From a virus (lineage: Duplodnaviria; Caudoviricetes), in IMG/VR virus record IMGVR_UViG_3300020045_008194, positions 1 through 46,500 of that record: a stretch of DNA of 46,500 nucleotides; one strand, given 5' to 3'. Positions within the stretch are counted from its first letter, which is position 1. Each line of letters starts with the position of its first letter. Positions 1 to 45,902 of this stretch are shown one piece after another. The notes below the pieces were generated by a model. That model was not told the origin of the DNA. It saw only the letters and a list, made by a program, of their open reading frames with translations, and did no database searches. Position numbers and translations under genes: made by a program.

Positions 1-1069
1 AAGCATCTTTTGTTCCTCCAAGTACTAAAGAGTCCCCTGTCGCAGCGTCGATATCTGGAGTCACTAGCACGGGAGAAGTATTAAAAACTGCAAGGCCTGT
101 ACCTGTCTCATCCGTTAAAGCGGTAGATAAATCTGACGACGAGAAAGACCCAAGAACCGTTGCAAGTCCTGTAGAAGTTACCGCCCCTGTCAGGTTTCCT
201 GCAGAAGGAAAATCCCACGAAGGAGCTAGAGTCGTTCCGTTTGATTTTAAAAATTGTCCAGCAGTACCGTTTGCTAAACGTGTACCTGTACCTGAAGCAC
301 CACCATAGATTAAATCTCCTCCAGTAGTCATAGGAGAAAGAGCATCAAAGGCCGTAGTTTTTGTAGAAGCTCCTGTACCTCCGTTAGCTATAGGAAGAAC
401 TCCTGTTACATCTGTAGTTAGATCTAAAGCAGAAGCTGATAAAAGACCTGATACGGCCTTTACTACTCCTGAGAGTGATCCGACTGTAGCAGTTCCATCT
501 ACATCAAGATCGTCAATACCTGAAAGATCTCCAGTGTCCGATAAAATACCTACAGAGTTTTGAACTAATTTTCCTGTAGTACTATCGAATCTTGCTAAAG
601 CATTGTCTGTAGCACTTGCAGGACCAACTACAAATGTAGATGTATCAGGACTTGCAGATAATTCCACCCAATCATTGTTTGCTAAATCTGTAGCGAATGT
701 ACCAGATGTATGCGCAGTTAAAGCATAATAAATTTTATTAGATTCGATTACCGTATCACCAATTACGTATGCCTTGGCAGTTTCCCACAATGCAAGATTT
801 CCTGCACCTCCACCACCTCCTGAAAGTTCTGTCCAGTCACCGTTAGTTATACCACCTATAAGAGTGTAATGTTTTCCATCTGCTACAACGTAAACTAACA
901 TTCCTTCCCATCTTCTTAAAGATGATAGAGCATCTCTAGCTGTAACGTCTGCGACACTCATTCTATCTTCGATAGGAAGTGCAGCGTTCATTGTAAAGTT
1001 AGAAGAAAGCGGAATACCTGCAAAGGTTTCGAAAGTTACCAAGAGTAAAAGTAATAACAATTTTTTCAT
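1..1069 (-). CDS. Tail fibre protein (3'-truncated at window edge) with N-terminal signal peptide
   Basis: Not in the ORF track; translated by hand from ATG at 1069 and open to position 1. MKKLLLLLLLVTFETFA-GIPLSSNF..., a CBM5/12-like stretch (WETAKAYVIGDTVIESNKIYYALTAHTS) and fibre shaft motifs GPASATDNALARFDSTTGKLVQNS, TGVLPIANGGTG, GTAGQFLKSNG, LTDETGTG. Confidence 0.85.
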   Translation of the reverse strand, partial: MKKLLLLLLLVTFETFAGIPLSSNFTMNAALPIEDRMSVADVTARDALSSLRRWEGMLVYVVADGKHYTLIGGITNGDWTELSGGGGGAGNLALWETAKAYVIGDTVIESNKIYYALTAHTSGTFATDLANNDWVELSASPDTSTFVVGPASATDNALARFDSTTGKLVQNSVGILSDTGDLSGIDDLDVDGTATVGSLSGVVKAVSGLLSASALDLTTDVTGVLPIANGGTGASTKTTAFDALSPMTTGGDLIYGGASGTGTRLANGTAGQFLKSNGTTLAPSWDFPSAGNLTGAVTSTGLATVLGSFSSSDLSTALTDETGTGLAVFNTSPVLVTPDIDAATGDSLVLGGTKDA

Positions 1070-1081
1070 ATATGCCTCGTA

Positions 1082-2401
1082 TTATCGTTTGAATGTAAAG
1101 TTTGTTGATCCAGCTACTACAGGGTTTTCAAATTCATAAATGAAATATGATACCGCGCTTGCATCTAGACCTGTAATGTTCTCAGTTCTTTTAGTCCATG
1201 ATGAGAAAGTTTCAAATCCGTTTTCATCTAGAATAGAAACTAAGTCACCGTATGATGCTGGATAAGCGAAATAATAAACATCACCATCTAGTGTAGTAAA
1301 AGTTGTGTTATAGTTAGCGTTTGAATTAATTACAAGTTTTGTCATAGCTGCAACTTGAGCAGCAGTCCTAGAAGGTGCTCCGTTACCTTTATAATAAGGA
1401 TAGACAAAAGAGTACGTTACGTTTGACGTAACTGTAGTTGGTCCACCACCACCTGCTGCATCTGTAACAGCAACTGTAAAAGTTGTAGTATCTGTAAATG
1501 GTCCTGCAAATATAGTGCTTGATGTACCTGATCCTGTTTGTACAGGAGGGGCCATATCTTCGATTGTTGTTGCACCTTGAGTGAATAAAATTCTAGCAAT
1601 ATCATTTGCTCTCTTGGTAACGTTAACACTTAAAGTGACGTTTGATACCGATGTACCTTTTTCTCTTAAACTATTTGATGATCCTGTAAAAGATGCTATT
1701 AATGGACCAAGATAAGTGAAGTCTAGAATTTTTTCTAAAGTATCTCTAAGACCTACGCTTGACCAAGCTCCAAAACGTGAAGAGAAACCTGTAAGTACAA
1801 AATCATCCCATTCAACGTCACCGTCTAGACTTGAAGCTTTTACTAAAGCTGCTCCAGTATCTCCACCCGCTGGAATTAAACCCGGATTATTAGTAGCAAT
1901 ACCAAGTTTAAAACCTGTACCTGTTTCGTTAATAATGATAGGAGCACCTGGATTAGTTGCAAGCCCAGGAGGTAAAGTAGTATCAAAATTATCGTCAAGT
2001 TCATGAACCTTTAAAGATCTTCCTACTAAATAGGCAAGACGTTGAACTGCACCAACGATCCAGTCCAGTGCCATTTCAAAAGTTTTTAAATCAAACGAAG
2101 ATTTGTTATTGAACTGATAAGGTTGTGTAGGTTCATCATTTGCTTCAAGAAGAATGATTGTATAACCTGTGAGTAAGTCTCCAGCAGCAAGTGTTACAGA
2201 TCCTCCACCCAAGATAGGATTAAATGTAACGCTTGAAAAAAGTCCACTGTCTCCGCGAACTCGATACTCTTCTTCATCGTCATCATTGAGTATTACTACC
2301 ATCAATTGTTCGAGTGCTTCGATTTTAAAATCGAAGGTATAGGTGTCCAGATTTCCTGCACCTACGTAAGACTGTTTTGGAGCGTATGTTTTTCTTGCCA
2401 T
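1082..2401 (-). CDS. Tail fibre anchor/adaptor protein (T7 gp17-like N-terminal anchor)
   Basis: N-terminus YVGAGNLDTYTFDFKI... and FEMALDWIVGAVQRL resemble podophage fibre anchor domains; Thr/Ser-rich beta C-terminal half; follows the ejection proteins. Confidence 0.75.
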   Translation of the reverse strand: MARKTYAPKQSYVGAGNLDTYTFDFKIEALEQLMVVILNDDDEEEYRVRGDSGLFSSVTFNPILGGGSVTLAAGDLLTGYTIILLEANDEPTQPYQFNNKSSFDLKTFEMALDWIVGAVQRLAYLVGRSLKVHELDDNFDTTLPPGLATNPGAPIIINETGTGFKLGIATNNPGLIPAGGDTGAALVKASSLDGDVEWDDFVLTGFSSRFGAWSSVGLRDTLEKILDFTYLGPLIASFTGSSNSLREKGTSVSNVTLSVNVTKRANDIARILFTQGATTIEDMAPPVQTGSGTSSTIFAGPFTDTTTFTVAVTDAAGGGGPTTVTSNVTYSFVYPYYKGNGAPSRTAAQVAAMTKLVINSNANYNTTFTTLDGDVYYFAYPASYGDLVSILDENGFETFSSWTKRTENITGLDASAVSYFIYEFENPVVAGSTNFTFKR

Positions 2402-8388: not shown

Positions 8389-10226
8389 TACATGCCTGCT
8401 GTAGAAGAGTTAATCTGTTGAGTGCTTAACCAGTTTAGAAATTTCTTATCCTTAGAAGTAGGAAAAATTTGTCCATTTGTCATAGTGTCCCTATATTTCT
8501 TCTTAAAAGGTAAAAGTTCTTTATCGGTCATTCTAAGAGTATCTTTCTTGACAGGAGCTGTCGATGCAGGATCTTTAGGAGATGGAGCACCTACTACTTT
8601 TTTACGAGGTTCAGGATTAAAAACTCTTCCAGCAATTTCGTCAGCCGCAAATTTGTTGACAAAGTCTCTCGTTTCCTTCGGGTTCATTGGACCGTACTTT
8701 TCCATAGCATCTAGAAGCTTTGTACGTGAGTTTAAAATTACACGTTGCTCTTCACTGTCGTATCTACCGTAGTCGTTCTTCTCAATGAACTCACCTTTAA
8801 ATAATTGCTCTTCTAACATTGCACCAATGCGTTTTACAGATGCAGACTCCTCGCCAGGTGTAACTGTCTTGGCCTTATTGTAAATGTTAGTGTACTTAGT
8901 TTTATCGGCTTTACTTAAACCTACAGTGTACTTACGAAATTGTTCAGGTGAAAGATCTTCTAGACGTATATCTGGATTATCACCAAAGACTATTGCTTGC
9001 AGTTCCATCTCAGCTTTTTCATCTGTAACTTTGGGAGCAATAACCATTTCTTCAATGGCCTTACGTCCTTTAGCATCTAGGTTACTGTAGCGAGCTTTAA
9101 ATTCTGGATCAGCTTCAAGCTCTGCAAAACCGTTGAAAGGATTTTGAGAATTCATACGAGCTTCTACACTTTTTGCAAGTGATTCGTAGTTTTGAGTTTC
9201 TCTACGATTTTTCATGTTCTCTAAACGACGATCATCTGTATCTTTAATCTTCAACATCTCAGATCGTACTTCAGGATCTTTCTGACTGTTGATATACGAC
9301 AATTGTTCAGACTCAGACTTTCCACGGATCTTTGCGATCTCGTCATATGCTGTTTGCTTTACTCCAGCAGCTTGAAGTCTATTATCTAATGTTGTTTTAG
9401 TTTTAGCATCCAGATAAGGTCTGTACCTTTCCATTGCTTGCTTAGCTTCTTCAGTGTACCCAGCAGCTTCCATTGAAGCGATAGACTGTCCTACACCTTC
9501 AGAAATTTCCTTAGCCGTTCTCATCTTGGCGATGTCAGTTAACTTAACTTTTACGATTTTACCGTCACCGTCTGTATACGTATGATCCCAAGATTTCGCA
9601 TCGTCTGGAAGAACTTCTCCAGTACCTTTATCGATTGCACGTTGAGCTATCGTAGTTCTGATATCGTTGATACCTTTATCGAACTCCAAGTATGAACCGG
9701 GGTCATTCTTCTGAATGTAAGATGCTCTATTTGATAGATCAGTTTTTTTTAGTTTTACACTTGCTTCATATACGTTGTTTTTAAAAGTCTCTTGTTGAGC
9801 ACCACGCTGTTTAAGAGCTGCAACTTGTTCGTCTTGAGCAGTCTTAGTAAGTGCTCCAGTCAAATGTCTTTTTACACGCTCATTAACATCTGGACGAGAA
9901 TTTAAAATTGCATCATATTTTTCTTTAGCATCTTTATCGTATTGTACGTAAGCGTCTGTTGGATCACCTTCGTAGTTTTTTAATTCACTAAGTTTTTGAT
10001 CGTTCCATGTTTTATATTCGATCTCAGCTTGCTGAGAAAGAGATGCAATTTCTTGATCTTCAAACTTTTGATAAATATCTAAACCTTTCTCAGCAACACT
10101 TGTAACTGCGTTTGTTCTATTTAAAATGTCTGAAGCATTATCCTGAACACGTAAATTAATACGATCATTAGCAGGTAACGATTCGCTTGGAGTAACTCTT
10201 TTTAGTGTTGGTATTTCTACTGCCAT
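8388..10226 (-). CDS. Internal virion (ejection) protein
   Basis: 612 aa charged helical protein between the small and large ejection proteins; podophage synteny. Confidence 0.65.
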   Translation of the reverse strand: MAVEIPTLKRVTPSESLPANDRINLRVQDNASDILNRTNAVTSVAEKGLDIYQKFEDQEIASLSQQAEIEYKTWNDQKLSELKNYEGDPTDAYVQYDKDAKEKYDAILNSRPDVNERVKRHLTGALTKTAQDEQVAALKQRGAQQETFKNNVYEASVKLKKTDLSNRASYIQKNDPGSYLEFDKGINDIRTTIAQRAIDKGTGEVLPDDAKSWDHTYTDGDGKIVKVKLTDIAKMRTAKEISEGVGQSIASMEAAGYTEEAKQAMERYRPYLDAKTKTTLDNRLQAAGVKQTAYDEIAKIRGKSESEQLSYINSQKDPEVRSEMLKIKDTDDRRLENMKNRRETQNYESLAKSVEARMNSQNPFNGFAELEADPEFKARYSNLDAKGRKAIEEMVIAPKVTDEKAEMELQAIVFGDNPDIRLEDLSPEQFRKYTVGLSKADKTKYTNIYNKAKTVTPGEESASVKRIGAMLEEQLFKGEFIEKNDYGRYDSEEQRVILNSRTKLLDAMEKYGPMNPKETRDFVNKFAADEIAGRVFNPEPRKKVVGAPSPKDPASTAPVKKDTLRMTDKELLPFKKKYRDTMTNGQIFPTSKDKKFLNWLSTQQINSSTAGM

Positions 10227-10717
10227 TATTTACCCCTTTCGTATCCTGTAAGACCTGTCTTTGCAGCACCTGCGACAGAGTTAAACATTGTAGTAGCTGC
10301 TTTCATATTTGCATCTGCACGTTGAAGTGCTCCAGTATTTCTAAAGTCGTTAGCTTGTGATATATAACCAAGAGCTTTTTCTTGAGAGGCTTTCTCTATC
10401 TCCATAAGGTTCATCATGCCTGTAAACTTTGCTTCTTCTTTTTTAGCTGAAGCTGTACCGTATGAAGTATCTACATCTTGAGCAGCTTGAATAAGCTGTT
10501 GTTCTGCAAGTACATCGTCAATCACACCTTGGTAACGTGCCTGCTGAGTTTGTCCTTCAGCTAAAGCATCGTAAGCATCAAGCTCTGCGAACTCAGCGTT
10601 CTGATCTGCGATTTCTTGATTTAATTTTGCCGTTGCTTTAATGTTCTGTGAAGCGAAATATCCACCTGCTAATTCAAGTGCTGCTACTCCACCGTACAAT
10701 GCTAATTGTGCTGCCAT
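10226..10717 (-). CDS. Small internal virion (ejection) protein, T7 gp14-like position
   Basis: 163 aa, Ala/Gln-rich with hydrophobic Gly/Ala termini, directly after tail tubular protein B. Confidence 0.65.
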   Translation of the reverse strand: MAAQLALYGGVAALELAGGYFASQNIKATAKLNQEIADQNAEFAELDAYDALAEGQTQQARYQGVIDDVLAEQQLIQAAQDVDTSYGTASAKKEEAKFTGMMNLMEIEKASQEKALGYISQANDFRNTGALQRADANMKAATTMFNSVAGAAKTGLTGYERGK

Positions 10718-17079: not shown

Positions 17080-17571
17080 TTAGTTAGCGTCTGACCACGT
17101 ACCTAGGATTCCAACAACTACCCATTGCGAAGCTGAGACTGCTTGTAATGTAATAGTATTTCCTAGAGTAGCGTTTCTGATCATATCTCCAGCAGCATTG
17201 GTCTGAACTAAAATTTGATCAGCAGTATCAGGATTTACATCAAAGTTAGCAGCATTAAGTGTAACAAAAGTTAACTTACAACCTGGCACTGTTGAAGCTT
17301 CTGGAAGTTCCATTTGTACTGCTGCTGTATTGTAGAATGTTCTTCCACACTGAGCTGATGTAATTGCAGTTGCTGTTGCTGCTACAAGTGTAGAGTTAGC
17401 AGATGATGAAACAACATTTACAATTCCACCTTTAATCTTAGTACATGTCAAACCTGCTGCGCAGTTCATTCCTGAAAATACACCTAAAGATTTTCCAGCA
17501 GACTTAACTTCAAATCCTGCGTGAGCTGTTAATGAGAAAAAAGCGACTGCGAGTAATAATAACTTTTTCAT
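17080..17571 (-). CDS. Signal-peptide-bearing beta-rich protein in head module (putative decoration/fibre)
   Basis: Start 17571 (GGAGGG RBS): MKKLLLLAVAFFSLTAHA-GFEV...; four Cys; C-terminus (ELPEASTVPGCKLTF...QWVV...GTW) resembles fibre/decoration tip domains. Confidence 0.7.
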   Translation of the reverse strand: MKKLLLLAVAFFSLTAHAGFEVKSAGKSLGVFSGMNCAAGLTCTKIKGGIVNVVSSSANSTLVAATATAITSAQCGRTFYNTAAVQMELPEASTVPGCKLTFVTLNAANFDVNPDTADQILVQTNAAGDMIRNATLGNTITLQAVSASQWVVVGILGTWSDAN

Positions 17572-25172: not shown

Positions 25173-25445
25173 ATGAAAACTTTAATCTTAATCGCTACTT
25201 TAACAATGTCATTTACAGCTTCAGCATCTTATACGTTATCAGTTAGAGATATTAAGTTAGCAACTAAGAACATTAAGAGTTATTACAACGATGCATCTGT
25301 TAAATACGCAGGTAAGAAAACATTGATAGTAACTGTTAACGGTAACGAGTGTGTACTTAAGAATGTTACGTTTTTTAAAGACTATAAAGGTACTAAGATG
25401 ATCGATGAGAAGACTTACAATAAAGTTGAGACTTGTTTAGAGTAA
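25173..25445 (+). CDS. Secreted hypothetical protein (first early gene)
   Basis: AGGAG RBS; MKTLILIATLTMSFTASA signal peptide; two Cys in the mature part. Confidence 0.75.
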   Translation: MKTLILIATLTMSFTASASYTLSVRDIKLATKNIKSYYNDASVKYAGKKTLIVTVNGNECVLKNVTFFKDYKGTKMIDEKTYNKVETCLE

Positions 25446-25780: not shown

Positions 25781-26065
25781 ATGAAACAATTAATTATCAT
25801 CGCTCTTGTTATCGGTACAATTATCACTAAGGCAAGCGCAGCGGATTGTAGCATTGTACTTAAAGCAAAAAGCACAAGTGCTGTATCAGGTAAACTTGGA
25901 AATGTATCGTTCTCTAAAAAACATATTAAAGCTCTTAAGTCTACAGGTTGTAATGTATCTATAGAATTAATGAGCAGAGATGAATTAGTTGCCGATGCAA
26001 CTAAAGCAATTGATAAACGTATCGCAAAGGCCGCTGCTGATAAACTTGAGGATGCAGCGGAGTAA
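25781..26065 (+). CDS. Secreted hypothetical protein
   Basis: AGGAG RBS before ATG 25781; MKQLIIIALVIGTIITKASA signal peptide; two Cys. Confidence 0.72.
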   Translation: MKQLIIIALVIGTIITKASAADCSIVLKAKSTSAVSGKLGNVSFSKKHIKALKSTGCNVSIELMSRDELVADATKAIDKRIAKAAADKLEDAAE

Positions 26066-39680: not shown

Positions 39681-40763
39681 ATGAGTCAACAATCAAACGG
39701 TACGCCTATCATGGTACAGGGAAGAATTATCTGGGGAATCGGACAAGATCTTTTCGCTGGTAAAATGAAAACAGATGAACATACAAAGCAACTTATTATC
39801 GATCCTAAAACTGGACAAGGTATTTTAGAGTATGGTTTCGGTTTAGCAGTTCCTAAATACAAACAAGGTACTACTGAATTCTCTCCACAGTGGATCGCTC
39901 TTTATCAAGCTCTAATGTCAGAAGCTATGACAATTTATCCAAACGGACAACCTCCTCAAGACTTCGCATGGAAATATAAAGATGCAGACGTTATAAGAGA
40001 TAAAAACGGAAAACTTTACAGTGAACGTGAAGGACAAGCAGGACATATCGTTTTGTCATGTACTACTCAAATTCCTATGAAATGGTTCAAATGGGACGGA
40101 CAACAAAACGTTGTAGTTAGTACTGGTTTTAAAGTTGGTGACTACGTTAACGTTCAGTTAAATATTAAAGCTCACCCTCCAGTTGGTAGAGGTAAGCCAG
40201 GTCTTTATTTAAACCCTTCTGCTGTACAGTTTATTACAGAAGGTAAGCCAATTTTCAATGCTCCTTCAGGTGATCAAATGTTCGGTATGAATGCTCCACA
40301 ATACCAAGGACAAGTTGATGCTCCAGTTATGGGAGCTATGCCTAATCTTGGTAATGCACAACCACCGATGCAACAGCAAGGTATGATGCCGATGAACAAT
40401 CCGCAAATGCAACCTCCAGCTCAACCACAATACCCACAACAGCCTCCAATGCAACAAAACTATCAACAGCAGTATGATCCTAACTACAATGTGATTCCAC
40501 AGCAGCACCAGCCACAACAAGGTCAAATGCAGGGAAACGGACAAGGGCAATATGGACAGATGAATACTGCGATGCCGGGCATTCAAAATCCAAACGTTCA
40601 GAATGGATCGGTCCAAAATTCTACCCCGACAGGTATGAATGGCATGACTGTACCTCAGAATGCATACCCTTCTAATCCTCCGCAAATGCCTAATCAGAAT
40701 TTCCAACAAGGCCCTCCACAACAGCAGGGACAAATGGGAATGCCAATGATGCCGCCTAGATAG
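39681..40763 (+). CDS. ssDNA-binding protein (DUF2815/gp2.5-like) with long Q/P/N/M-rich tail
   Basis: FAWKYKDAD, GDYVNV, GLYLNPSAVQFITEG; located between DUF2800 and the polymerase. Confidence 0.7.
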   Translation: MSQQSNGTPIMVQGRIIWGIGQDLFAGKMKTDEHTKQLIIDPKTGQGILEYGFGLAVPKYKQGTTEFSPQWIALYQALMSEAMTIYPNGQPPQDFAWKYKDADVIRDKNGKLYSEREGQAGHIVLSCTTQIPMKWFKWDGQQNVVVSTGFKVGDYVNVQLNIKAHPPVGRGKPGLYLNPSAVQFITEGKPIFNAPSGDQMFGMNAPQYQGQVDAPVMGAMPNLGNAQPPMQQQGMMPMNNPQMQPPAQPQYPQQPPMQQNYQQQYDPNYNVIPQQHQPQQGQMQGNGQGQYGQMNTAMPGIQNPNVQNGSVQNSTPTGMNGMTVPQNAYPSNPPQMPNQNFQQGPPQQQGQMGMPMMPPR

Positions 40764-40786
40764 TTTAACGCCCTCGTAGGCAAACT

Positions 40787-40844
40787 TCCAGTCAGAGACC
40801 ATCTATTAACTTAGAATGTGAATATCAACTCTGACTGGATTTTT
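40787..40844 (+). promoter_or_regulatory. Large-loop stem with U tract in the polymerase leader
   Basis: TCCAGTCAGAG (40787-40797) / CTCTGACTGGA (40829-40839), 31-nt loop, then TTTTT. Confidence 0.55.
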
Positions 40845-40854
40845 AAAAGGTTTT

Positions 40855-42810
40855 ATGGATAGAAAATATTACATTTACGATTTAGAAACGATGCCTAACT
40901 GTTTTTTATTCGGAGGAAAATTTGCAGGTGGATCAGAAGTTCAAATGTACGAAATTTCCGAACGTAGAAATGATCGTGAAGGTTTATTCGCGTGGCTTAG
41001 TTATTTAAAAAGTATAATGAATTTAGAAATGGTAGGATTCAACAACATCGGTTTCGACTATCCTATCATTCATGAATTCATGACCAATCCGTATACCTTC
41101 ACGTATGAGAAAGCTTCTCAGATTGCCACGCAAATTATTCAAGCTCAACGTGGAAACAGATTAAATTCTGTAGCTGCTCATAATAGATTAATTCCGCAAA
41201 TTGATATGATGAAAATCTGTCACTTTGATAACGATGCAAGACGTACATCTCTTAAAGCTTTACAGTTTGCAATGAGATCTGATTCTTTAGAAGACTTACC
41301 ATTTGGTATTAGAGAACTAGAACCCCAAGAGATGGATGTTCTTCGTTCTTACTGCGCTCATGACATTACAGAGACTGAGAAATTCTTTAAGTTACACGAG
41401 CACGCTGTAGACATGAGAAGAGAGTATTTAGAAGAAGGACTTCTTACAGGTGACGTTTTAAATTTCTCAGACGTTAAGATCGGTACAGAATATTTGATCA
41501 AGCGTATTGGAAAAAATAACTGTTATGCAGGTGGAAAACCTAAACAGACTTTTAGAAGTATTGTTGAATTTAATAAAATAATTTTACCTAAAATTGAATT
41601 TAGAACTGAGCTTTACAAGTCAGTACATTCTTGGTTCGCACAGCAAGTTATATATATCGACAAAACTGAACGTCCTTCTTTAGATATAAAACTAGGTGGA
41701 CTTGACTTTCATTTCGGAGTTGGAGGAGTACATGCATCAGCAGAAAATAAAGTATTTCATAGTGACGATGATTATCAAATTATTGATATTGACGTTGCTG
41801 GTATGTATGTCGCGGTTGCAATAGCGAATGGTTTTGAACCAGAACATTTAAAAGGTCATTTTCGTCCAGCGTATAAAGAAGTTAAAGATAACCGTTCTCA
41901 ATATGCCAAGGGTAGTAGTCGAAATGCAGCTATGAAACTTGCAGGTAACGGAGCTTACGGTAACTCTAACAATCCGTGGTCTCCATTTTACGATCCTCAA
42001 TATACTTTCTCAGTTACAGTAAATGGACAGCTTCAGCTTTTACAACTTGTAGAGTTGATCGATCTGCTTCCAGACTGTGAACTTATTCAAGCTAACACAG
42101 ACGGTATCACTGTACGCATTTTAAAAAAGAATGAAGTTTTCTTTAAAATGTGGTGCAAGATCTGGGAGAAAATGACAGGTCTAGAACTTGAGCATGTACA
42201 ATACAAGCGCATGTGGATTAGAGATGTTAACAACTACATTTCAGAAAAGATGAACGGTGAATTAAAACGTAAAGGTGCTTATTGGTATCCTATCACTACA
42301 AAAGATTATGAAGGATGGTACAATAAAGATTTCTCTAATCATGCTTCTAAAATTGCAGCAGAGTTAGCAATGACTCATTCTTTTCCAGTTGAAGCATCTA
42401 TAAGATTAGTAACAGATCCTTTTGATTTTATGCTTAGATATAAATGTCCTGGAGGATCTACATTGTGGATCGGTGACGTAAAACAATTAAAGACTGTACG
42501 ATATTACGTTTCTAAAACAGGTCAACAGATGAAAAAGATTTCACCACCTAAAGGTGAACTTGGACAATATTGTAGAAAAAATAGTTTGAAAGATTCGTAC
42601 TTCGATAACATAATGAAAGAGATTGGTAAAAACGTATGGGATGCTAGAGTCCATACTAAAAATAAAAGTACATATGAAATCCGTACTACTAATATTGAAA
42701 ACGGATGGAAAGTTAAAGAATGTAACGTTGCCAAGAACTTCGATTGGAATGACGTTGACTGGAATTACTACATCGAAGAAGCTAAGAAAAATATTATAGG
42801 GAGTAAGTAA
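40855..42810 (+). CDS. Family B DNA polymerase with 3'-5' exonuclease
   Basis: ExoI YDLE, ExoII GFNNIGFD, ExoIII YCAHD; motif A DIDVAGMY, motif B KLAGNGAYG, motif C ANTDG. Confidence 0.9.
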   Translation: MDRKYYIYDLETMPNCFLFGGKFAGGSEVQMYEISERRNDREGLFAWLSYLKSIMNLEMVGFNNIGFDYPIIHEFMTNPYTFTYEKASQIATQIIQAQRGNRLNSVAAHNRLIPQIDMMKICHFDNDARRTSLKALQFAMRSDSLEDLPFGIRELEPQEMDVLRSYCAHDITETEKFFKLHEHAVDMRREYLEEGLLTGDVLNFSDVKIGTEYLIKRIGKNNCYAGGKPKQTFRSIVEFNKIILPKIEFRTELYKSVHSWFAQQVIYIDKTERPSLDIKLGGLDFHFGVGGVHASAENKVFHSDDDYQIIDIDVAGMYVAVAIANGFEPEHLKGHFRPAYKEVKDNRSQYAKGSSRNAAMKLAGNGAYGNSNNPWSPFYDPQYTFSVTVNGQLQLLQLVELIDLLPDCELIQANTDGITVRILKKNEVFFKMWCKIWEKMTGLELEHVQYKRMWIRDVNNYISEKMNGELKRKGAYWYPITTKDYEGWYNKDFSNHASKIAAELAMTHSFPVEASIRLVTDPFDFMLRYKCPGGSTLWIGDVKQLKTVRYYVSKTGQQMKKISPPKGELGQYCRKNSLKDSYFDNIMKEIGKNVWDARVHTKNKSTYEIRTTNIENGWKVKECNVAKNFDWNDVDWNYYIEEAKKNIIGSK

Positions 42811-43502: not shown

Positions 43503-43934
43503 TTACTTAATTTGATCACACAAATCTTTACCAACTTCCATTAGTATAGATGCTCCAAGTTTTCTAGAACATACATACTTAGTAGGAATTTTTGCAATTA
43601 GTGCAGGTACAACATTGTTGTTTACAAAATTACAAGCAGCAGGAAGAACTTCAGAAGTTAAAGATTTATCGGCCATAGCTGCTACTTTTTGTTCAGCTTT
43701 TAAGAACTTCAACATTTCAGCTTCTACGTTTAGACCAATTTCTTCAGCTTCAGATTCACAACTAAACCCATCTACTACGATAAGATCTTCAGAAGCAAAT
43801 TTGCTTTTAAGTTCTTTAGTTACAAATTCTTTAGCAGTTTTAGACACATCAACTTTTGCATCGTTGAATTTATCCTTGGTAGATGCACAAGACACCAGAG
43901 ATAATAACATTGCAGACACAATTAGCATTTTCAT
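43503..43934 (-). CDS. Lipoprotein in lysis cassette
   Basis: MKMLIVSAMLLSLVSC lipobox; helical, four further Cys. Confidence 0.75.
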   Translation of the reverse strand: MKMLIVSAMLLSLVSCASTKDKFNDAKVDVSKTAKEFVTKELKSKFASEDLIVVDGFSCESEAEEIGLNVEAEMLKFLKAEQKVAAMADKSLTSEVLPAACNFVNNNVVPALIAKIPTKYVCSRKLGASILMEVGKDLCDQIK

Positions 43935-43948
43935 TTAATCCTCCCAGA

Positions 43949-44257
43949 TTATTTTTTATTAGAGATCGTCATATTATTAATACCGAATTTTACCATACAG
44001 TCAATGTCTCCCCATAAACATACTAGAGTTAATCGTCTGCACTCTTTCTTATCATTACCAAAGATAGTGCTTTTTGTACGACACTCTTCAGACTGATAGC
44101 ACATTCCTTTGTTGTGAAGTTCAGGGCCATCTAACTCTTCTTTACAGAAACGCCACTCTCTACGACTCGATTGAACATCTTCCATTTGCCATACACTCCA
44201 ATCTGCTGAGATTGAAGAACATGAGTAGAGACATAACAAAATTAATAAGTATTTCAT
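43949..44257 (-). CDS. Cys-rich lipoprotein (possible o-spanin)
   Basis: MKYLLILLCLYSC lipobox; six Cys after the lipidated one. Confidence 0.6.
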   Translation of the reverse strand: MKYLLILLCLYSCSSISADWSVWQMEDVQSSRREWRFCKEELDGPELHNKGMCYQSEECRTKSTIFGNDKKECRRLTLVCLWGDIDCMVKFGINNMTISNKK

Positions 44258-44499
44258 GCTGCTACCGCCTTTGCTTGAGTGATGTTTTGTTCAAGCTCTT
44301 TAGTGTATGCAATTAAATAGTTATCTAGATCCTGTTGAGCTTTCGCTACAGCAGCGTCTGAGTACATTGGATAACGAGCGTTCTTCGCATTCTGTAGAAC
44401 GTTTAAAAGATCGTAAAGATCTCCCTCGAACTTACGTCTACGTTCATCTGTAAAGATTGTAGCACCTGCTAAAATTAGTTTTAAAATTACTTCAGTCAT
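44254..44499 (-). CDS. Helical protein with hydrophobic N-terminus (possible spanin component)
   Basis: MTEVILKLILAGATIF then coiled coil; ATGA overlap with the lipoprotein. Confidence 0.45.
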   Translation of the reverse strand: MTEVILKLILAGATIFTDERRRKFEGDLYDLLNVLQNAKNARYPMYSDAAVAKAQQDLDNYLIAYTKELEQNITQAKAVAA

Positions 44500-44501
44500 G
44501 A

Positions 44502-44711
44502 CTATTTTCCTAGTTGTGATTTATCTTCTTTAACCACAAGAGCTTGCTTAGTTGTAAGTCTTAAGATACCGAAAATACCACCCAGAATTGCAGCATATTG
44601 TTCAGGATTTTCCGACATAAAATGTTGAACGTCTGGAAGAAATCCAGTAACTATAGCAAGTACAGCAGTCCATAATGTTTTTGATTTAAGAAAAGATTTG
44701 TCAAATTTCAT
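44502..44711 (-). CDS. Holin-like two-TM protein
   Basis: GGAGG RBS before ATG 44711; KSFLKSKTLW + TM, second TM ending ILRLTTKQ. Confidence 0.65.
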   Translation of the reverse strand: MKFDKSFLKSKTLWTAVLAIVTGFLPDVQHFMSENPEQYAAILGGIFGILRLTTKQALVVKEDKSQLGK

Positions 44712-44767
44712 AAGATCCTCCAGTTGATTAGGTTTAATTATCACCTATGAATCGACTGGAGGCAAGT

Positions 44768-45070
44768 TTAAGGTTTATTTGTTGGGAGGGTTCTAGCTAA
44801 ATCTTGAGCTTCTTTATTGTGACCAAGTACTTGCAATTTGTACATTTCCATAAATGTAAGAAAGCTTGCTTTAAATTCTTTATTTTCTAACTCTACTATT
44901 GTAAGTCGTGAGTCTAGTTTAGGGTAATTGGTTACAGCAGCGTTAACTCCGTTAAACCATCCCATTGTATAGGCAAAAACACCCCATAGAAATACAATAA
45001 CAGGTATTATAGTTTTAATATTTGTACCGATCCACTTAGGGTTTGTAATCATTCTTACGTACATCTTCAT
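44768..45070 (-). CDS. Single-pass membrane protein in lysis cassette
   Basis: IIPVIVFLWGVFAYTMGWF TM followed by coiled coil. Confidence 0.55.
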   Translation of the reverse strand: MKMYVRMITNPKWIGTNIKTIIPVIVFLWGVFAYTMGWFNGVNAAVTNYPKLDSRLTIVELENKEFKASFLTFMEMYKLQVLGHNKEAQDLARTLPTNKP

Positions 45071-45093
45071 CTCCTCTAACTCCTAGTTTGCAA

Positions 45094-45888
45094 TTAAAGG
45101 GCCGCACAAGCTGAAGGGTTTTGATCAATTATCTTTTCCACTTCTGTTAATAAAGCTACGACTTCAGGACGAAATTCAACTTCTTTTCTATTGATCGGAC
45201 CGTAATGTTTTCTAAGTGTACGTAGAGTGATAGCTGCATATTCTGCTGCGAAAGCTGGACATTGCCTTGCCATCTCTTGAAAAGTTCTACCCGGCCCAGA
45301 TCCGTAAATAGTACTAGATGATTGTGAACAAGTTATACCTTCTTTAAATACTTCTAAATAACACTCTTGGTGATACTCAGTAAGCATGTCTTTTAAAGAT
45401 TGGTGAGCAGATGAAGAGTTGAAAGAAGTTTGAAACATTCCAGCTTCAGCAGTTGTTGCAGTAACATTATTTGCTGAAAGATCTCTACCTTCGCAATATT
45501 TTCCTGAACTCTCGCGCATCCCTAGACCAATTAAAAAAGCGTAAGTATTTTTATTTGATGGAACGATATTGTAGTATTTTAACGCATCCTTATCTTCACT
45601 ACCAAGAATCATGTCTCCTGCGACCTTGTGAGGAGCACAGTAAGCTCTAGCGTAGACAAGAGACATTCCCTTCAGATAACTTACAGGAGCTTTTCCACGG
45701 CCTTTAAAAGAGTACTGAGCAGCTCCTGAAGTGGAAGCAGCAAGCATGATCTGAGCTTTAACAGCATTGACAGGTAATTGAGCACCGGGTTCTAGTACTA
45801 TAGGAGCATCTGGAATAGGTTGTGGTTTTTCTTTGTGGGCACAAGCAGCAATAAAAAGTGTAACGATAACTGAAATAAGTAACTTCAT
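45094..45888 (-). CDS. Lipoprotein with lysozyme-like (putative muralytic) domain
   Basis: MKLLISVIVTLFIAAC lipobox; GMRESSG and AEAGMFQTS match the ES...GxxQ signature of lysozyme-fold enzymes. Confidence 0.65.
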   Translation of the reverse strand: MKLLISVIVTLFIAACAHKEKPQPIPDAPIVLEPGAQLPVNAVKAQIMLAASTSGAAQYSFKGRGKAPVSYLKGMSLVYARAYCAPHKVAGDMILGSEDKDALKYYNIVPSNKNTYAFLIGLGMRESSGKYCEGRDLSANNVTATTAEAGMFQTSFNSSSAHQSLKDMLTEYHQECYLEVFKEGITCSQSSSTIYGSGPGRTFQEMARQCPAFAAEYAAITLRTLRKHYGPINRKEVEFRPEVVALLTEVEKIIDQNPSACAAL

Positions 45889-45902
45889 AAGTCTCTCCAT
45901 AA

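Follow-up and report, generated by a model that had tools for sequence, protein, structure and literature searches.

The window analyzed here is a whole viral record of 46.5 kb. Its gene content (terminase, portal, GP7-type capsid protein, Bbp16, tail and internal virion proteins) is that of a short-tailed phage, and its best capsid matches among cultured phages are approximately 40% identical. The virion genes form one minus-strand operon that runs to the contig edge, where the gene at 2-1069 is located (Table 1). This gene is open at the contig end, with 356 aa visible; the window ends do not overlap, and the gene cannot be rejoined. Because complete relatives measure 45-50 kb, little of the genome appears to be missing except the C-terminus of the fibre-like product. 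A scan of 30 ORFs, including every one longer than 300 aa, revealed no integrase. The initial annotation had guessed at a Bdellovibrio host. The lysis-region marker gene matches Bdellovibrio phages only, which makes a host belonging to Bdellovibrionota likely; the support comes from this single gene, which was present in one of five relatives tested.

Table 1. Features of the fibre-adaptor locus and of two further genes in the window
Feature	Position	Strand	Basis
Putative Gly/Thr-rich mosaic fibre-like shaft, truncated at the contig end	2..652	-	Orthologue comparison
CBM5/12-like module, residues 95-122	704..787	-	Pfam PF02839 (E 2e-5), short of the curated cut-off
'Plug' domain, residues 18-84 (67 aa), predicted virion-attachment module	818..1018	-	PHROG 25379/24134
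Predicted Sec/SPase I signal peptide, residues 1-17, cut between TFA and G	1019..1069	-	Leader conserved in orthologues
Shine-Dalgarno-like GAGG, 5 nt ahead of the ATG	1075..1078	-	Sequence
'Socket' region, adaptor residues 232-439: Ig-like domain and conserved C-terminal domain	1085..1708	-	Ig-domain hit, E 2e-5
N-terminal domain of the leaderless adaptor	1892..2401	-	Weak PHROG tail hits, E 5e-4 and 7e-3
Second leader-bearing late protein, two Cys pairs, predicted tailspike/capsid-spike knob fold	17080..17571	-	Between portal and scaffold-region genes
Lysis-region protein, host marker	45094..45900	-	Matches only Bdellovibrio phages phi1422, phi1402 and MAC3UK among 50,697 phage records

Gene 2-1069 starts 12 nt past the stop codon of the upstream adaptor gene. 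The N-terminus of its product reads MKKLLLLLLLVTFETFA up to the predicted cut and GIPLSSNF after it, with an MKK n-region, an h-region of seven Leu plus Val, and T-F-A before the cut. An orthologue search that took in proteins of 624-2000 aa gave 1170 hits, of which the best 120 were listed. The same N-terminal domain was present in 10 of the 120 matches listed, and 9 of these 10 carried a leader. The leaders of the nine orthologues and the query were 17-20 aa long, with Ala at -1 and Gly at +1 in all ten and a small residue (T/V/A/S) at -3 in all ten; the n/h/c pattern was kept in 10/10 despite the changes in length. Mean identity among orthologues was 59% in the leader, versus 74% in the plug domain. 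The leaderless orthologue, P0152, begins M-GIPL at the protein level, exactly at the predicted cut position. No second hydrophobic anchor was found in the query or the nine orthologues. Leader calls were made with a home-made heuristic rule, which 10 of 294 internal windows of mature protein also pass; false calls at L053 8942 (the same as L066 6936 and L086 10247; an internal Met) and at L126 4554 were removed by eye. Judged by its conservation in sequence, the leader is a real feature and more than chance. The Sec-type signal peptide that the initial annotation had assigned to a fibre-like gene was thus borne out, under our own rule and with a ribosome-binding site before the ATG. The check for a downstream start also came out in favor of the leader: the in-frame Met27 has no ribosome-binding motif upstream, and its position is Val in most orthologues (consensus).

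PHROG tail and virion families matched residues 23-83 of the protein (E 5e-13 and 8e-11). The plug domain also opens gp60 (E 4e-17) and gp61 (E 1e-25) of Cellulophaga phage phi18:1 (NC_021790), both leaderless and annotated from virion MS/MS. The CBM5/12 match scored 24.8 bits versus the Pfam cut-off of 26.2, and weak matches to this module were present in eight of the nine leader-bearing orthologues. Full-length orthologues are 530-1122 aa long and have Cys-containing distal modules. An AlphaFold monomer model of the fibre had a pLDDT of 41, insufficient for a structure search; neither the plug nor the fibre was matched when solved structures were searched by sequence, and an Atlas search returned viral clusters and CBM5/12-bearing clusters only. 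Cluster look-ups covering 10 proteins yielded neither names nor hosts. The gene sits in the tail module directly behind an adaptor with weak tail hits. These results indirectly suggest that the product of 2-1069 is a fibre. In single-protein scans of viral contigs, the fibre query yielded one locus, matched in the shaft only, and the adaptor query yielded none; a metagenome scan using fibre residues 1-84 likewise found no locus. The loci for the census described below came from alignment-based scans. Plug matches were absent from two MAGs (G011 and G012), which are incomplete genomes. A plug tree needed three leader changes and placed P0152 inside the leader-bearing group, with weak support (68 columns).

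The adaptor gene (1082-2401) encodes 439 aa without a leader and is placed after the portal, capsid, tail and internal-virion genes. Its N-terminal domain, matched in 8 of 10 related records, likely anchors the protein to the short tail. The socket region weakly resembled the C-terminus of phi18:1 gp59 (HHalign 57%, E 1e-4; PHROG 23570, E 0.0075). This protein, which is annotated from virion MS/MS, is encoded immediately upstream of the plug genes gp60 and gp61. The socket also matched proteins of crAss-like phages. No Pfam family covers the plug or socket domain, and neither gave a sequence match to a solved phage structure.

We examined the pairing of the two domains across loci. The 66 viral loci contained 64 distinct socket domains, 63 of them C-terminal. 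A plug gene directly followed the socket in 61 of the 64 viral cases, was fused to it in one and was lacking in two; as background, a plug gene followed 10 of 471 other ORFs. In the 80 metagenome loci, a plug gene followed 80 of 80 evaluable sockets (85 were found, five of them too near an end), in a set that partly overlaps the viral one. The pair remained coupled across very different phages, including records of more than 300 kb (loci L063-L224). Leaderless chains running from a socket protein through a plug-plus-socket protein to a plug protein were found at L053, L054 and L078. Where the adaptor had no socket, the plug was absent as well (G001, G003, G004 and G005). One contig (L067/L083; L083:7701-11111) carried an in-frame fusion of adaptor and plug fibre, which is split in a near relative (L151:2884-4236). 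It may be genuine, or may reflect a lost stop or a sequencing error, and is weak evidence for the pairing. From the strict pairing of the genes, we infer that the socket terminating the upstream adaptor is the binding site of the plug domain.

The distribution of leaders within the pairs was then compared. Among metagenome pairs, 75 had no leader, four had leaders on both partners and one on the plug only. The leader rule was passed by 6 of 119 socket-bearing proteins. A leader on the plug only was found in the window and at L074-L077 and L145, and a leader on the socket only at one viral locus (L072). In phage pairs with leaders on both partners (L082/L146 and L177), a leaderless protein lies further upstream, and in the close relative L078 the entire chain is leaderless. 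In records G001-G006, which were reached via the head-module gene, the gene after the adaptor carried a leader in 6/6 cases, whether or not it had a plug; G010 agreed with this pattern, and G009 is cut off. At a chromosomal bacterial locus with NDK, HD, beta-CASP and SLOG neighbours (L191:4246-8690), a socket protein is encoded together with a fibre of 1177 aa that begins with a plug and ends in an S74 chaperone; both proteins have leaders. This locus appears to hold the phage pair in a cellular, secreted form, in which case the pair can work away from the virion. As a separate observation, a phage with a tape-measure-like gene (L001:5737-9936) encodes a fibre-like protein of 1068 aa that has a CBM5/12-like module and a leader-like N-terminus and is followed by a second leader-like protein.

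Cysteine content was examined in relation to the leader. The nine leader-bearing full-length orthologues contained 12-21 Cys, compared with 3 in P0152 (761 aa). P0126, P0127 and P0152 share a module in which the first two have a Cys pair and P0152 has Phe/Phe. The median number of Cys per 100 aa was 1.75 in 12 leader-bearing plug proteins and 0.32 in 30 leaderless ones of at least 400 aa (p 6e-6, uncorrected for kinship). The fragment in the window (356 aa) contains no Cys. Three leaderless plug proteins reached 1.7-1.9 Cys per 100 aa, and several leader-bearing fibres were poor in Cys (7 in 1305 aa in G001, 6 in 876 in G003, 3 in 798 in G004 and 2 in 888 in G005), so disulfides cannot account for export in general. 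Oxidative folding nevertheless fits the sequences of the fibre family of gene 2-1069.

The protein encoded at 17080-17571 also carries a leader. The leader rule was passed by 105 of the best 119 of its 160 matches. Four Cys are invariant in the family, and the gene keeps its position behind that of the portal. A model of the protein (pLDDT 85) resembled CBA120 TSP4 (Z 11.1, rmsd 2.2, 91 aligned) and the capsid spike of Pa223 (Z 10.7, rmsd 2.5, 94 aligned), the latter described in the accessible text of a preprint (10.1101/2025.06.11.659172). It is likely a second exported appendage. The initial annotation had grouped it with the fibre as one system; an obligate pairing was unsupported. The gene was present in 1 of 10 socket-bearing records searched, and the plug gene of that record is leaderless, whereas the complete relative G014 has a leader-bearing plug fibre without the head-module gene. 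Some homologues of the 17080-17571 protein contain an insert of 70-110 aa. A phage-type contig in a Marinimicrobia MAG (L010:2534-5037 and 9128-10360) encodes three leader-bearing proteins around terminase and portal genes, one of them with a knob domain of this type.

The conservation of the leader implies that it works. If it does and the plug binds the socket, the inner membrane would separate the two partners, and they would meet only at lysis. We therefore consider it rather probable, on sequence grounds, that the fibre is exported by Sec, folds in the periplasm and docks on the virion at lysis. The fibre-like protein would likely be exported via Sec and its leader cut between A17 and G18, giving an N-terminus equal to that of the leaderless relatives after their Met. 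It would then likely fold in the periplasm, with predicted disulfides, while the adaptor would join the tail in the cytoplasm. The plug would dock onto the socket of the leaderless adaptor only once lysis mixes the compartments, and the fibre, as the host-recognition part, would be added last. The benefit, speculatively, could be oxidative folding in the periplasm and progeny that stay unarmed until release. In T4 and P22, fibres and tailspikes can be attached in vitro to particles that are already complete, which makes late docking plausible.

Export with docking at lysis, one of the possibilities raised in the initial annotation, stands as the best reading because it draws together the conserved leader, the plug/socket pairing with a leaderless adaptor, the gain and loss of Cys that track the leader, and leader-bearing proteins of the cultured Cellulophaga phage phi10:1 (KC821618). 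The late genes gp091-gp094 of phi10:1 encode proteins with classical leaders that are annotated as structural from virion MS/MS, although their presence is taken from GenBank notes and could reflect co-purification. They differ from the product of 2-1069 in having Gln at the predicted +1 position and few Cys, and are likened to it by leader and annotation. The wider proposal, that tailed phages have a second, extracytoplasmic assembly line in which secreted fibres and spikes snap on at lysis via a widespread plug and socket, with a signal switchable on either partner and with the pair taken up by bacteria for secreted fibres, has in our estimate a slightly better than even chance of being correct.

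The fibre might instead be exported and never join the particle, remaining on the infected cell or free as a MAT-like adhesin, or as a receptor mask on cells or debris. The remodelling of the host surface suggested in the initial annotation is retained in this form as a weaker rival, which we regard as unlikely but worth serious attention. Bdellovibrio makes signal-peptide-bearing phage-like fibres of its own, the MATs (PMC10769870, accessible text), and the host here likely belongs to Bdellovibrionota; the L191 locus, moreover, provides a cellular, fully secreted socket/plug pair with S74. However, the socket partner in the window has no leader, the plug remains on average 74% identical among orthologues, and plugs are missing where the adaptor socket is missing. 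The gene lies directly behind the adaptor in a late virion operon, and the query and nine orthologues show no membrane anchor. The lack of an integrase among the 30 ORFs scanned and the occurrence of the head-module family in only 2 of 185,579 prokaryote genomes, both at loci of phage-type genes, make lysogenic display unlikely. On this rival reading, phages like G001-G006 would be left without an evident distal fibre behind the adaptor.

A leaky leader would let a fraction of the protein escape Sec and assemble on the adaptor in the cytoplasm, with export as a sink or a second role. The relative L078/G013, which has the same lysis-region marker, builds its chain without leaders, so cytoplasmic assembly of plug and socket domains is possible. 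An uncut hydrophobic leader of 17 aa would, however, occupy the docking end, the cut site coincides with the natural N-terminus of the leaderless forms, and the Cys pairs come with the leader and vanish without it; we consider this explanation quite improbable. That the leader is not used at all, being an incidental hydrophobic run or bypassed by a downstream start, is very improbable indeed. Met27 could serve as such a start, but it is not conserved, has no ribosome-binding motif and would truncate the plug domain, and the n/h/c pattern persists in all ten leader-bearing sequences at a mean leader identity of 59%.

Short-tailed phages with an adaptor plus a fibre resemble the preferred arrangement, a fibre docking on a tail-bound adaptor, in having a tail-anchored adaptor, then a separately encoded distal fibre, and modular chains. 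Examples include the T7 gp17-type anchor, the K1-5 gp37 adaptor and the branching of CBA120 TSP4. To our knowledge, known adaptor-mounted fibres lack a signal peptide, and both their synthesis and their attachment take place in the cytoplasm. Gene 2-1069 departs from this classical pattern by its conserved leader. Cellulophaga phage phi18:1 is alike in its plugs on gp60 and gp61 and its weak socket on gp59, but it has no leaders, is long-tailed with a tape-measure gene, and has a Bacteroidota host.

Bdellovibrio phage phi1422 (NC_019525) encodes a leaderless protein annotated as 'tail fiber' (gp67), followed by the leader-bearing gp68 (614 aa, 8 Cys). The distal module of gp68 is common to the fibre family of gene 2-1069 (E 9e-9, in a 40-protein set). 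The phage differs in being contractile-tailed; gp67 and gp68 gave no plug or socket hit, and gp68 is annotated as hypothetical. The genome paper of phi1422 uses the word 'signal' a single time (PMC3391216). The tail-fibre region of phi1422 (L140) encodes, besides gp68 (40429-42273), the leader-bearing gp75 (44298-44810), which is also annotated as hypothetical.

The MATs of Bdellovibrio bacteriovorus are alike in combining a signal peptide with a mosaic phage-like fibre and variable tips. The accessible text describes them as host chromosomal adhesins with a beta-rich domain, approximately 130 aa long and conserved, after the signal peptide, 13 of 21 of which end in S74 (PMC10769870). Gene 2-1069 differs from them in being phage-encoded within a virion operon and paired with a leaderless tail adaptor. 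No S74 hit was found in 10 orthologues, although non-S74 MATs exist and the C-terminus is missing from the window, and no MAT chain was hit by the fibre fragment in the search of solved structures. We consider that the product of gene 2-1069 probably behaves as an adaptor-mounted tail fibre and is not a MAT. Other phage proteins use host Sec. M13, unlike the lytic tailed phages, is filamentous and assembles at the membrane. Its G3p uses host Sec (PMC8310372, accessible part). Signal-peptide genes of Porphyromonas prophages do so too, but they are of unknown function and are read as outer-membrane modifiers in the accessible text (PMC10367356). In the part of PMC12309495 available, a signal peptide is mentioned for Lom only. 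A Klebsiella dsbA screen was considered and set aside, as its effect is explained through host receptors in the accessible text (PMC13412088) and has no bearing here.

In the literature searched, with subscription journals largely outside it and some sources available in part, we found no description of Sec export and post-lysis attachment of tailed-phage fibres, and none of the plug/socket domain pair. The window contributes a candidate docking pair whose two partners are predicted to lie in separate compartments. The pair is a candidate general fibre connector, extending from 40-kb short-tailed phages to records of more than 300 kb and crAss-like phages. Tailed-phage particles are taken as complete before lysis. 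If docking at lysis is correct, host-recognition parts could originate in a different compartment and join the particle at lysis or later, disulfide-stabilised binding domains would become available to phages, and Sec and Dsb would become host factors for infectivity. Signal-peptide genes in tail modules would then have been misread as host-modifying cargo. The window adds natural leaderless controls, and the similar layout of phi1422, a cultured phage, makes the lysis-docking reading directly testable.

Proteins with leaders were also observed in other parts of the window. The early region encodes two small basic proteins with Sec-type leaders (25173-25445 and 25781-26065), neither with a Pfam match. 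The lysis region (43503-45900) encodes three Cys-containing proteins of 143, 102 and 268 aa with export or lipoprotein-like leaders. The 268-aa protein is common only to Bdellovibrio phages and is annotated in one record as a 'putative peptidoglycan-binding protein'.
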